DNA of 64,000 nt, taken from the NCBI GenBank assembly GCA_964016885.1, contig OZ024743.1, forward strand, positions 172,298,001 through 172,362,000, given 5' to 3'. Both the position numbers and the translations under genes were made by a program. The first letter of the stretch is position 1, and each line of letters begins with the position of its first letter. This document shows, piece by piece, positions 1 through 58,686 of this stretch. The notes under the pieces are model-generated. The model saw only the letters and a program-made list of their open reading frames with translations, was not told the origin of the DNA and searched no databases. Source of the stretch: Eledone cirrhosa (Eukaryota).

Positions 1-1436
1 TTATTCTTCAACCAAGATATCAACATATTATTAGAGATATGGATATATATATATATAGATATATATTAGGTATTATTTGTGTAGTATACTTTAGGTAAAT
101 GATAACAGTTACAATTTTATCAACGTATCACATTCAAAATACATATATATATATAAGAAAAACAATGAGTGCATGGATGATACAGAGTTCAAAATAATGT
201 CTATAATAATTTTTAGTTTGGATATAATTTTTATATTTGAATCATATATGTAGAAATGTGGTAGGTATATTTAAAAATATTTAAAAATATATAAAATATA
301 ATATATAACTACATATATACTGTATGGATAATTTAGAGTTCAAAATAATGTCTATAATAATTTTTTATTTGGATATTTTCTCTATATTTGAATCATATAT
401 ATATAAATGTGGTAGGTATATTTAAAAATATTTAAAATATACAAAATATAATATATAACTACATACATATTATAATTATAATTATATTATAAGTAAATAA
501 GAGATATTATATTATAAGTAAATATATATAGAAATGTGGTAGGTATATTTAAAAATATTTAAAATATACTACATATAATATATAACTACATACATATTAT
601 AATTATAATTATATTATAAATAAATAAATAAGAAATCGAAAGCGCAGCGAAAAAAAAACGAAAAAACCACATTTATATATGTTTGAATTCGTCTCAAATT
701 TTAGATTTCATAGTGTAGTAAATATATTTACAAGAAATATATTATATATTATACTATAAATAATAGATCAAAAACTCGCTAAAAATTTAGAGTTATAGAT
801 AAGTTTCATAAAAATTTATGGATTGGGTATTAAACTAAAATTTAAAAGAGATCACAAATGTATTAAAAATTCGCAGTTAAATAAATTCCATAAATATGTA
901 AGGATTAGGTATTATACTAAATTATAAGCATATATAGAAAGGTAGAAATAAGGAGATAAAGAAATGACGGTATTGATCAAAGTTAACAAATAATGTTGTG
1001 TGTATCAAAATTTAGGCTTGCTATTTGAAATATTGTCATTCATTCTAGCGTTGTGTCTTCTAAAGATAGTTATAAAATAAAGCAATATTAGAGGCCGTTA
1101 ATGTTTTTTCTGTTGATTATATATTCCTGGTAAACGAGTTGTTATTGGTTTGGTGCAATTGTTTATTTCTTTCTCATTTTATGTGAGGCTAAAAAAGTGG
1201 ACGTAGCTTTATGGAGGCAACTAGAGAACAATTCACTTTTTTGTTAATTATTAATAATCAACAGGGTCTCCATTGTACAGAGCGGGCAGTTATTTGATAT
1301 ACTAGAGTTGCGTAAATTCCACAGTTCCGAAGTTTTGTCCAAAGAATGGAGTATTCTAAATTCTTCTCTTTTAAAGCTGTGATAAAGACGTAGATGATTT
1401 CGAGAATGAACATTTATGGTTCGCGAAACGAGTTTT
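1..1436 (-). mobile_element. Penelope-like element fragment: degenerate GIY-YIG C-terminus (~1150-1436) plus AT-rich 3' UTR; runs off the window start
   Basis: The reverse complement aligns by eye with 36598-36850 (GIY-YIG: ...ARFANHKCSF...SILWTKL...NCALCTME) and with 37200-37470 (3' UTR). Confidence 0.8.
170..620. repeat. Imperfect tandem duplication (~160 bp units) inside the PLE 3' UTR
   Basis: AAATGTGGTAGGTATATTTAAAAATATTTAAAA...ATAATATATAACTACATA occurs 3 times (~254, ~405, ~532). Confidence 0.8.
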
Positions 1437-1490
1437 CTGATGAGGACGTACTGTTGTACATCCGAAATATGTATAATAAAATGAAATTGA
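1433..1490 (+). ncRNA. Type I hammerhead ribozyme (5' strand of stem I truncated) in an inverted pLTR
   Basis: CTGATGA(1437-1443)-GGA C GTAC tgtt GTAC A TCC-GAAA-TATGTA-TA-ATAAAA; core identical to the copy at 38296. Confidence 0.8.
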
Positions 1491-1587
1491 TCAAAAGAAC
1501 ATCTATTTTATTAATACTTATATTTATATATATATATATATATATATATATATATATATATATATATATATATATATATATATATAT

Positions 1588-3980
1588 TAAAATAACAGAT
1601 TAAAGTTTAAGCAAAGAATCGCTGCTTTCAACCTTAACGGGATCTTCTGAAACTAAAAAAGTCAATCTGTGAACGCAGAAGTAAATATTTCAAAAAACCT
1701 TGCAACCGAAGGAAGACAGAAAGACGATACTTTGGTTCGTGGAAACGTTCCCTGGCAAAGAACGGAAAAAAACGAAGATAATACGTCATTATTTGGTGCA
1801 GTGAAAACAATTACACGCGAGGACAAAACCACGCTTATGGTATAAATGAAGTCGTAGACTAATATTCTATTAGGTGGTTCATGGAGACGTTCTCTTGCAA
1901 TGAACGGAAAAAACGAAGATAATACGTCATTATGTGGAGCAATGAGAACAATTACACGCAAAGACAAAACCACGTAAATGGTATAACTGAAGTCGTAGAC
2001 TAAAATTCTATTTAAGAAACCGAATGATTCTCGGCTTCAGAGTTAAGAATAAAGTAAATAAAATACAGAGGTAATTGAAATTAAATATATACAGACACAC
2101 ATCCATATACGTGCATACACAAGCTTACGGGAAGACACTCCACATGGGTATGCAAATACGAGCACGTACTAAAAAAAATTTTTTTTTAAAACACACACGC
2201 ACGTACAGAACCCACGCAACGCCTCTACCGCACACATACGAACGTATATACCAAATACACATAAAAATAAATAAATGGTCGTTGTCTAGTTCCATGTTTA
2301 GTTCTATATTTGTTATTCCTATGGGGGCGGGTAGTGCAGTTGTCGTTACGTTTGTTGTTGCTGCCTCTATCTGGTATTTTGAGCCCCTCCTTGTGGCCTG
2401 CCTTATGTAAAGCTACGTTATAGTAGTTTGCGTGTTAGAAGATAGGCGGTATACTCTGAGGGATATACTATGTGCTATCGAGTTAATTATGAAGCGAGGG
2501 TTGTTCGAGTTATAACTAATGTAGGCTAGATTCTCGTTATTTTTATAGAAGGGCTCTATTAGTCTTGTGTTTAAGTTGAGTGTTATATCTAAGAAATTTG
2601 TTTTTTAGAGTTAAGTTCGAAAGTGATACCTAGGCCTAGTCTATTGAAAAAGACTGATGTTTTTCCGTAATCTTTCCATGCTTTGAGTATTTAAGTTTTT
2701 AGCTAAAAGGAGCACGTCGTCTCTATAAATTCCTCCTTGGAGGTTACTAAATTCCTTATGTAAGTTATGCGCTATATATATTCCAACTATGTCTGTTACT
2801 TGTGCTGAGTCGCTAGATACCATTGTAATATCGAAGCTATTCTGTCTGTTTTTTCGTTCTCAGTAAACATTTTCGAATCTGATGATAGTTCTCCTAGCAG
2901 CTAGTATTATTCTAATTTCATCAGAGGTTAGGTCCGAGTTTTTCTGGGCCAAGTTGAGCGCTTTATCTAGGGTGACTGGAGAGATGGTGAAGTAGTAGTC
3001 GTTGATATCGAAATGTACGAAGTTGGATGCTTCCCTACTGTCTATTTTGCTAAATCAATCTATTGCTTCATTAGTGTTACCCCATAGCTTAATTACTAGT
3101 GTGTCCTTGATTTGTGCTATTACTCTATCTAGTATATACTTGCTAATTCTACCTATATCTACTTCGATGGGCATATTAATCTAATTGTGGGGTCTGTCAC
3201 GAAATTATTTTTATGATCTTTTAGGTTAAATGTGGAGTTACAAGGGGTTAGAGGCTCGGTTCTATCAGAATTTTCAGTTTTTATACTATGCTAAGTCCTT
3301 CCTTATTAATGTCAATGAGTGTAGATTCGATAGTTTTCCTGTAATGTTTGTGTAGTTAGCGGCGTATAAAGTTATTGTATCGCGGTGTATACGTTTAATG
3401 TTTTGTCCGCTTTTACTATAATCCCATTAGTGCTGCGTAGTTTTTTCAGCAGTGCATTGATGTCGTTTTGCATTTTTTTAATTTGGTTCCACTTATCATG
3501 TTCATGAGGCATCAATTTGGGGGTTACTCGGTGGATTTTTGCAGGATTTGAATCCGTATTTTTCCTTAGTAAATTCCTCTGTGTTATTAGCGTGTTCTTT
3601 GTTGTAATGATAGGCTTTCCACCGGATTCGACGGATGAAGTCATTACTACGCTGTATCATGCCGAGTATAAGGTCCCTGTTTGTAGGTATAGGTATGCTT
3701 TTAAGGACATGCCTATGTGGTGCTTTTCCATGTTATGCCGTGCACTAAGGTTATTGCTCAACCTAGTGGGAGCTGGGTATATGGGATAAGAAGTTATCGT
3801 TTTAGGTAATCCAGTTAGAGGTTGTGAGTACTCTGTACTATGGATAGTTTTAACATACGGCGTTGTTTGACTCAACAAGAGGTTTCCTTAGTTAGGTAGC
3901 GATTTTGCGAGAATACTCATGCAGGTTATTCTTGGAGTTAAAGTAGTGAAAGAGTGAAGAATAACATGGTCGGCTGTACT
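1588..3980 (-). mobile_element. Degenerate Penelope-like element with RT
   Basis: ORF 2641-2823 has SAQVTDIVGIYI...GGIYRDDVLL (PLE RT motifs). ORF 3372-3644 has IIVKADKTLNVY (typical PLE N-terminal KADK). Many stops and frameshifts. Degenerate HHR at its 3' end (~1610-1652). Confidence 0.8.
1761..2012. repeat. Two-copy tandem repeat, ~142 bp period
   Basis: AACGGAAAAAACGAAGATAATACGTCATTAT...GAAGTCGTAGACTAA.ATTCTATT at ~1761 and ~1903. Confidence 0.85.
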
Positions 3981-57435: not shown

Positions 57436-57436
57436 A

Positions 57437-58060
57437 CGCGCCTGGTGTCGAGCGCCAAACACTTCGAGGCGATCGGCACTACACTCAGAATACGAGACAG
57501 TGACAGGAGCAATGATTAACCAGGAAAAGTCGGTGGGTCTGTGGCTCGGTACCTGGAGAGGCAGGTCCATGCCGTCCAACAGCGTTGTGGGGCTCTGGAC
57601 GAAAGAACTGGTTAAATTGCTAGAGGTCTGGTTCAGTCCGGACCTCCAGATGGAGAAAAACTGGAGCCAGGTGACGAGCAGGAAACCTCTCTCACCCAAA
57701 AATTAGCAGAGAGAAAGCTATCCCTGAAAGGTCGAGAAGATGTGGCGAACGCGTACATCGCGTTCGTCATCTACTACCACCGGACCGTCGTGCCTTGTCC
57801 TAAACTTCGCCTGACTGCTTTGGAGCGTTTGCTCTTTCGCTTTTTGAGGGCTGGGCATGCCGTGGCTGATGATACGCAAATATGCGCTCAGGCTACGACA
57901 TCTCCACCTCTTTCTCGACGGTGATCAGATGTGATCGCCGTTTGCTAGACGCATTTTCCCCCAGCTCGTCTCCTTGGTGGAGCTGCAGTCCTGGATCAAG
58001 CGAAGACCGACCGAAAGGGAGCGCTTGGAGTTTGGAATGTCTTCGGGCTTTCCCCACGAG
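57437..58060 (+). mobile_element. Tx1-like fragment, opposite orientation to 54490-56432
   Basis: YETVTGAMINQEKSVGL.LGTW, VWFSPDLQMEKNWS. Confidence 0.8.
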
Positions 58061-58633
58061 TGACCCTCTGAGCCCAATCCCTTATACGAATATACAATTT
58101 ACCAGTCAGATATTATTCTTAGCATATTGACTGTTGCCTAGTTGTCTGGACTCCTAACTTTTAACTTTTAATGTCTGAAATTTCGATTTTTTTTTCTTGG
58201 TTTTTCGGGTTGTGGAACTTTAAATATTTTCTATGATAAGTTCTATTAACCATAGCAGTAGGTAACTTACTCGCTTTGGTGTTGATGGTCTGTATATCAT
58301 CCAATCAAGAACGGATAGCGGGTACAAATGCACTGAAATGCTACTGGTTGCCAAAGCTAGCAGTAAATAAATTTTGGTTGGTTTGAACTCACACTGACCA
58401 TATCGAGTTGTCGGCCGAGGAGGTGGGGGACTGGTAGCTAGAGGGAACAAATAAGGTTGGTAGTATTCTGAGTGTAGTTGAGTGGTCAGCCACCCATACC
58501 CCTGCAACTGCGCAGGGCTGTCGGGATGACCTGAAAATTAGAAGGAAGCGGACACCCAGAGCAAAAATATTTTTTTAGTCTGCTCCATTCCACATAGAAT
58601 TGCCTCAGAAATGTTTCCTTTTAATCAGTTTTT

Positions 58634-58686
58634 GCTGTCTGAAGAGATCACGATATTTATCGTCATTGAAATATATATAACGTCTC
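58634..58686 (+). ncRNA. Type I hammerhead ribozyme (short stem I)
   Basis: TGT CTGAAGA(58639) GAT C ACGAT attt ATCGT C ATT GAAA(58668) TATATA TA ACG. Confidence 0.8.

Follow-up and report, generated by a model that had tools for sequence, protein, structure and literature searches.

Why should a self-cleaving RNA keep an unpaired position inside one of its own helices? This question is raised by a 64,000-nucleotide stretch of Eledone cirrhosa DNA (assembly GCA_964016885.1, contig OZ024743.1, forward-strand positions 172,298,001 to 172,362,000; hereafter the window), in which a first-pass annotation had noted that the hammerhead ribozymes of Penelope-like elements (PLEs) carry a C mismatch at the fourth position of stem II (II.4). 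Analysis of the window and of its own genome (G000, 3.0 Gb) shows that the mismatch is strongly conserved in a hammerhead class of very large size, so far found in one lineage of one genome. The type I hammerhead sequences at the 3′ ends of this PLE lineage keep a 1×1 internal loop at II.4 that is likely held by selection, and we tentatively favor the view that the element's own protein docks at this loop.

Fifteen window hammerheads share a mismatch in stem II

The window copies were located by scanning both strands for CUGANGA followed by GAAA, with stem II zipped from the junction. All 14 sites named in the first-pass annotation show CUGANGA, three stem II positions, a C at II.4, an extension of the stem, and GAAA. 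The base opposite the II.4 C at these sites is C (n = 8), U (n = 4), or A (n = 2), and a 15th copy, absent from the earlier description, has the same arrangement (59538..59580, +; C59548·A59565). The core elements CUGANGA, GAAA, and UH occur in order in 13 of the 15 copies, the other two being damaged.

On the plus strand, the copies with C·C at II.4 lie at 25848..25892 (C25858·C25877; predicted cut after 25892), 39850..39918 (C39860·C39903; long stem II), 47060..47105 (C47070·C47090), 58639..58679 (C58649·C58664), and 28939..29000 (C28949·C28985). Those with C·U lie at 29943..29997 (C29953·U29982; loop III UGCACA), 32604..32658 (C32614·U32643), and 42653..42707 (C42663·U42692; the inverted partner of the copy at 41313), and those with C·A at 38296..38334 (C38306·A38319) and 1437..1475, from C3 to H17 (C1447·A1460). 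The minus-strand copies, named at 14336, 39283, 39600, and 41251, have their C3 at 14410, 39339, 39652, and 41313; they span 14350..14410 (C14400·C14365; loop III UAUAUA), 39291..39339 (C39329·C39306), 39608..39652 (C39642·C39623; loop III UACGUA), and 41259..41313 (C41303·U41274; loop III UGCGCA). Three copies are damaged, by a poor 5′ strand of stem I (1437), UG at the cleavage site (28939), or a cut and broken loop III (32604). Pairing had been said to resume after the mismatch, and does so in most copies; at 39339 and 39652 the very next position is unpaired as well.

Ten of the 15 window copies were aligned with MAFFT and compared with 500 shuffles. II.4 is unpaired in all 10, while 12 of the 15 pairs, seven others in stem II and five in stem I, have changed on both sides; stem III does not vary among these copies. 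Pairing is seen in 85.9% of all cells, and covariation reaches 0.655 compared with 0.310 in shuffled alignments, with none of the 500 shuffles as high, a margin to be read in the knowledge that kinship alone can beat shuffles. A scan of the window against Rfam (E ≤ 1) returned 61 matches and no hammerhead family, which is a weak negative because published PLE hammerheads came from pattern descriptors.

Some further sequences were seen around these copies. Hammerhead-like cores of other classes, or chance matches, occur at 40745 (+), 39063 (+), and 29520 (−), the first with stems I and II paired and CAGAGAUCUG as its loop III. By eye, a RUAYGUCA / AUCAUG word recurs about 30 nt upstream of C3 at 25848, 38296, 39339, 39652, and 42653, and is possibly a promoter element of the repeat.

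C at II.4 is conserved across the genome

Genome-wide figures are exact pattern matches, not folded individually, with the reversed pattern as control. With C at II.4, there are 80,766 matches with a UAYRUA loop III (control 93) and 30,132 with UGNNCA (control 0); with any other base at II.4, the corresponding numbers are 4,603 (control 221) and 850 (control 8). Overall, C stands at II.4 in 110,898 of 116,351 matches (95.3%), leaving 5,453 with another base. A G faces the C in 432 of the 80,766 matches (control 10; gap range 10–36), and many families are represented among the 100 such matches listed. The proposed mismatch thus withstood a genome-wide search in which position 4 could have proved to be paired or variable. 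Copies without the catalytic G8 number 2,376 (control 215), some of them spurious, and loss of the II.4 C (4,603 and 850) lies within about two-fold of this loss.

The mismatch was also recovered by a structure scan that had no preference for position 4. In 1.14 Mb of arbitrarily chosen DNA from this genome the scan gave 119 hits, compared with three in the reversed sequence. All 45 hits that combine a U-NNNN-A loop III with the C3 core are mismatched at II.4 (35 C·C, eight C·U, and two C·A), whereas none of the other 74 is, with the proviso that for these 74 the register was picked for maximal pairing, which biases them towards a paired II.4. These numbers bear out the view that the type I PLE hammerheads with the mismatch form a distinct subclass in which it is kept across divergent families.

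The 5′ C had been called invariant. It is so only within the U-NNNN-A loop III class: a sister group with a C-NNNN-G loop III has U·C at II.4 in 13 of 17 clusters, a count to which the search contributed, as the one that fetched most sister-group copies itself required Y and C at the II.4 positions. The sister-group pattern gave 3,008 matches compared with 1,415 for its control. Its members have the core CUGAGGA and a stem II region of 51–63 nt (L403-L432; L062 2236 (−); L296 2487 (−)).

Several hammerhead classes coexist in the 1.14-Mb sample, at about 100 hits per Mb. Among them are families that pair throughout stem II and whose core is a U3-A8 variant, UUGAUAA or UUGAAAA (L304 7084 (+), 6453 (−)). 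Tandem hammerhead arrays, like those of non-LTR retrozymes, were seen at L317 8631-9684, G000:C3:250040000-250043000, and C2:150010000-150013000, with CGCG and CUAG loop III and spacings of about 310 and 470–580 nt. In contig collections holding little animal DNA, a few loci resembled the class in stem II, and in none of these was stem I paired: three among 117 metagenome loci (2 of 64 parts scanned), three among 74 viral loci, and four among 120 prokaryote loci (7 of 64 parts scanned).

The mismatch is part of a fuller motif

To compare families, 265 distinct copies were clustered, including copies retrieved by searches that selected a changed position 4; 44 clusters belong to the mismatch class, and their columns were compared by anchored counts. 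The positions of stem II are paired in 30 (II.1), 41 (II.2), 42 (II.3), 5 (II.4), 39 (II.5), and 44 (II.6) clusters. Of the three pairs said to precede the mismatch, II.2 and II.3 therefore stand and II.1 often does not: it is G-C in 11 of the 44 clusters and U·U in nine. Similarly, the flanking pairs do covary, as had been reported, but not freely. The 5′ base of II.5 is a purine in 99% of cases, a pyrimidine being found in just 798 of the 80,766 matches, and II.6 is pyrimidine-purine in all 44 clusters. The register without an extra base after A9 fits best for all 45 class copies of the 1.14-Mb census; the register with the extra base was rejected for this class and suits other hammerhead classes.

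Removal of 18 copies selected for a changed position 4 left 52 distinct modules. C occupies II.4 in 36 of the 37 modules with a U..A loop III, and the sole exception is one copy from a family in which four of five have C. The stem II columns other than 10.3, 11.3, 10.4, and 11.4 require 8–16 parsimony changes. Stem II regions come in 20 different lengths, from 20 to 61 nt, that are not multiples of three, and a coding constraint on II.4 was thereby excluded. Loop III is palindromic in the class, the commonest hexamers being UAUAUA, UGCGCA, UAUGUA (with G·U), UGAUCA, UGUACA, and UACGUA. Because G·U outnumbers A·C in stem II by 51 to 19 on the sense strand, the sense RNA is likely the folded strand.

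In folding predictions for 47 modules, pairing of II.2-3 averages 0.26 when the mismatch is present, compared with 0.76 for a paired control, and it exceeds 0.5 in 11 and 36 of the modules, respectively; the mismatch is thus predicted to weaken the junction end of stem II. Single-strand folds of the window copies often miss the hammerhead. Co-folding of two copies gave a mean probability of 0.30 for loop III pairing, with no tie to the mismatch, and was uninformative.

The host element resembles Hydra-clade PLEs

Three stretches of PLE coding sequence lie on the plus strand of the window: an endonuclease fragment at 24394..24717, 1,130 nt upstream of the 25848 hammerhead; a second at 36592..36888, 1,407 nt upstream of the 38296 hammerhead; and, at 30723..31427, the C-terminal part of an open reading frame (ORF), comprising linker and endonuclease, that is 90% identical to a 760-aa ORF at locus L243. 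The L243 ORF contains DKT (HSDKTNN), a CxCX5C linker (CNCPVRTKC), CxxC (CNLC), and CxH (CLH), which are marks of Hydra-clade PLEs (Craig et al. 2021, PMC8557442). At the position of the RWK motif it has RWI, and database relatives have RWK or RWR. None of the sequences compared with Pfam (endonuclease fragments, L243 ORF, two relatives) matched a family. With a 2.3-kb ORF and a 3′ untranslated region of 0.9–1.9 kb, the element exceeds the typical, though not strict, Hydra-clade size of <3 kb. A (TA)5 run occurs within 400 nt of the cut site in 189 of 198 copies, in a genome rich in such runs.

Among 89 distinct endonuclease hits, a set enriched for one family, 40 have a class hammerhead 889–2,287 nt downstream; for 43 none was found, and six carry another label. 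A tree was built from 26 non-redundant hits together with 24 database relatives. Every class member with a reliable link falls in one clade that contains G000 sequences only (support 99/99), and their endonucleases are 44–79% identical (pairs with at least 80 aligned columns). The sole reliably linked hammerhead of another class is that of L254, and its ORF falls outside this clade. The class label does not lie on one side of a branch, as it takes four changes, due in part to 13 rows without a hammerhead found. The link between the 45759 endonuclease and the 47060 hammerhead was not trusted, since it crosses a (TA)n run and 45759 lies outside the clade. One origin followed by retention, rather than convergence, looks like the simplest reading of this tree.

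The 3′ ends and the endonucleases are discordant in several cases (L279, L108, L109, L008, and the window fragment at 24394). Where the hammerhead regions of families cluster at 86% or more, the endonucleases are only 49–53% identical, and dissimilar hammerhead regions go with endonucleases 71–73% identical. This suggests that 3′ modules may have been exchanged between families.

A second hairpin in the 3′ tail

Downstream of the hammerhead, 50–65 nt after the predicted cut, starts a second hairpin consisting of ACUC, a stem, a two-base bulge, and GAGUGC. In the window it is present in the tail at 14256..14284 (−; ACUC-stem-UU-GAGU), 42760..42786 (+), 47163..47191 (+), and 59642..59698 (+), with UU, UC, and UA as bulges. 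It follows 15 of 45 class copies and none of the 73 other hits; among random windows, 74 in 5,000 have it. Because the first (TA)5 run lies 30–69 nt past the cut in 107 of 198 copies and 120–169 nt past it in 59, the hairpin lies in an optional tail. In the Anolis element, a tail lies between two start sites of the reverse transcriptase (RT) (PMC11167929). The idea that the II.4 mismatch is a recognition site for the RT is plausible, but the second hairpin appears to be the better candidate for an RT start signal.

Why is the mismatch kept?

We favor, with some reserve, the reading that II.4 is a protein-docking loop that also weakens the junction. The element's own protein would help a weakly folding ribozyme to reach its active, probably dimeric, shape, the dimer presumably forming through the six-nucleotide palindromic loop III; a dimer through such a loop has been published for PLE hammerheads (PMC4209133, PMC6765202). 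Protein docking is preferred because base identity is constrained within a paired helix, no conserved RNA partner was found, and the Anolis hammerhead is protein-dependent. Indeed, the constraint on base identity at II.5 and II.6 within a paired helix is as expected if the groove is read. The Anolis element PAc carries the one PLE hammerhead tested with protein, and this cleaved only when protein was present (Frangieh et al. 2024, PMC11167929). As an analogy only, the thymidylate synthase mRNA stem has a C·C mismatch in a protein-relevant site that binds ligands (PMC3627590).

Several points weigh against protein docking. The mismatch is missing from the other hammerheads of the same genome (0 of 74), among them the one at L254 with its link to a related ORF, and from every one of the 26 Hydra rows in Craig et al., so that it is not a general requirement of the protein family. 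The opposite base varies between C, U, and A, and the sister group has a 5′ U, which is loose for a protein site. The second tail hairpin likely offers the protein another anchor, and activation may come from binding at the RT start site, off the ribozyme (Frangieh et al., PMC11167929). Among the 52 modules, positions 10.4 and 11.4 require five and six parsimony changes, compared with six and seven at 10.3 and 11.3, and the mismatch has one apparent origin. Selection on the loop, docking, and activation are themselves inferred. A more elaborate form of the docking reading is possible but doubtful: the C·C loop and its purine-pyrimidine flanks would be a putative allosteric handle through which the element's protein switches on the hammerhead, with the second hairpin marking the RT start.

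The main rival, in our view somewhat unlikely, is that the II.4 loop is an RNA-RNA tertiary receptor, on which stem I or a partner helix of the dimer packs against stem II in place of the loop1-loop2 contact, which hammerheads with such long stems would be unable to make. Geometry speaks for such docking: stems I and II lie side by side, with their contact required for fast cleavage (PMC4209133, PMC3088659), II.4 is one step below where the canonical 4-bp stem II ends, and its constant distance from the core would suit a role in geometry. Each allowed pair (C·C, C·U, C·A, and U·C) includes a C, and purine-purine pairs do not occur in the family representatives, damaged copies aside. However, stem I offers no conserved partner base. 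On its 3′ strand no position beyond 1.4 is conserved, as 1.5–1.12 need 12–19 parsimony changes each among the 52 modules, and whereas the largest families form stem I as a continuous A-U helix of 8 bp, it pairs over just 4–5 bp in others. The suggestion in the first-pass annotation that the mismatch is a tertiary-docking site is therefore not supported in its sequence-specific form; packing independent of sequence remains compatible with the lack of a partner. As to its alternative suggestion, a dimerisation site, nothing links the mismatch to dimers, which the palindromic loop III already accounts for.

An improbable alternative is that the mismatch merely damps the ribozyme, the weakened junction end preventing the template RNA from being cut early, with no partner involved. 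The predicted loss of II.2-3 pairing described above is what damping would produce, II.1 is frequently unpaired as well, and uncut RNA is the main insertion substrate in vitro (PMC11167929). For damping, though, any nearby mismatch would suffice, yet position and base identity are fixed. An inactive fold in which G8 pairs with 11.4 is predicted for 47060 and for the 14410/28939 family; it was rejected as a general mechanism, as it reaches a probability of 0.2 in just 2 of the 47 modules, and N7 and 11.3 show no covariation (13 observed, 21.3 shuffled).

We consider it quite improbable that selection plays no part, the mismatch being an accident that one expanding lineage inherited and that was carried further as families exchanged their 3′ ends. 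The single clade of reliably linked copies and the discordance of 3′ ends with endonucleases fit an accident, as does the lack of the mismatch in the other organisms scanned, from collections with little animal DNA. The modules appear to be old, however: the neighboring pairs have all changed on both sides, and loop lengths vary widely. Moreover, repair takes one substitution and would stabilize the helix, yet it is seen in no family. Finally, a constraint on DNA (a promoter element, an endonuclease homing site, or a cDNA hairpin) is very improbable, for although the pseudo-long terminal repeats of PLEs carry promoters and endonuclease sites (PMC11167929) and the mismatch on the opposite strand would be G·G, G·A, or G·T, the excess of G·U over A·C on the sense strand rejects folding of a DNA strand and the mismatch bases lie 12–60 nt apart depending on the family, which leaves no linear motif.

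If the allosteric form of the docking reading is correct, the class would be a ribozyme gated in nature by a protein that binds at a defined site, and a single genome would hold >100,000 copies of it. By themselves PLE hammerheads are poor at cleavage, and the Anolis one needed its protein; II.4 would offer a single-base handle on how such help is given. At least some "minimal" hammerheads would then carry selected information outside the core.

Other sequences in the window

Three further features lie in the window. Frames of a PIF1-like helicase (Pfam PF05970) at 17912-19882 (−) are probably a Helitron fragment. A duplicated non-LTR retrotransposon occupies 48425-49739 and 50639-54292 (+), with a 734-aa frame that contains an RT domain (PF00078). 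The best Rfam miRNA matches, none of which reaches the gathering score, come from a perfect inverted repeat around (AT)31 at 44276-44416.

Comparison with known hammerheads

No description of the II.4 mismatch was found in the available literature, and the conserved feature is absent from the published 56- and 26-row hammerhead tables. The claim that it is undescribed holds to this extent and is provisional, as Lunse et al. 2017 and Arkhipova et al. 2017 may show it. The available text of bioRxiv 10.64898/2026.07.22.740005 contains none of the words "mismatch," "stem," or "helix." The comparison also drew on PMC7229834 and PMC6155905.

The mismatch class shares with canonical metazoan type I hammerheads (Schistosoma Sm-alpha, newt, and non-LTR retrozymes) the core, a short palindromic stem III, and, probably, the requirement for a dimer. 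In canonical type I hammerheads, stem II ends after 4 bp in a loop, and this loop docks into a bulge in stem I. In the mismatch class, by contrast, stem II continues past the internal loop and stem I has no bulge.

Closer likenesses are found in the minimal PLE hammerheads of Cervera and De la Pena 2014 (PMC4209133), which share type I topology, a full core, a long stem II, a palindromic stem and loop III, location in the PLE 3′ repeat, many solo and inverted copies, and no recognisable loop1-loop2 contact. In their consensus, CUGANGAH G...C GAAA, one additional base follows A9, G10.1-C11.1 is conserved, and stem II is paired. The mismatch class differs in having no extra base, G-C at II.1 in a minority of clusters, and a fixed II.4 mismatch; searches demanding a paired stem II and G10.1-C11.1 would under-count it. 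By eye, 2 of the 56 Cervera rows are mismatched at the fourth pair: S. purpuratus 1 has C·A there and C. sinensis 2 has U·U, in each case following the extra base, and the text available does not remark on conservation; D. virilis has a bulge (PMC4209133).

With the Hydra-clade PLEs of Craig et al. 2021 (PMC8557442), the element shares DKT, the CxCX5C linker, CxxC and CxH around E and N of the endonuclease, (TA)n insertion, and a hammerhead near the 3′ end that often lacks the extra base or has a U·U first pair. In their File S2, none of the 26 Hydra rows has, by eye, an internal stem II mismatch followed by an extension, and stem III starts with C in those rows and with U in the mismatch class.

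The Anolis element PAc (PMC11167929) belongs to the Penelope/Poseidon clade, and its ORF starts within stem II. Its available description mentions no conserved mismatch and leaves the site of protein action unmapped. Like the element described here, PAc has a PLE hammerhead followed by an optional 3′ tail, and it provides the precedent for activation of such a ribozyme by the element's own protein.

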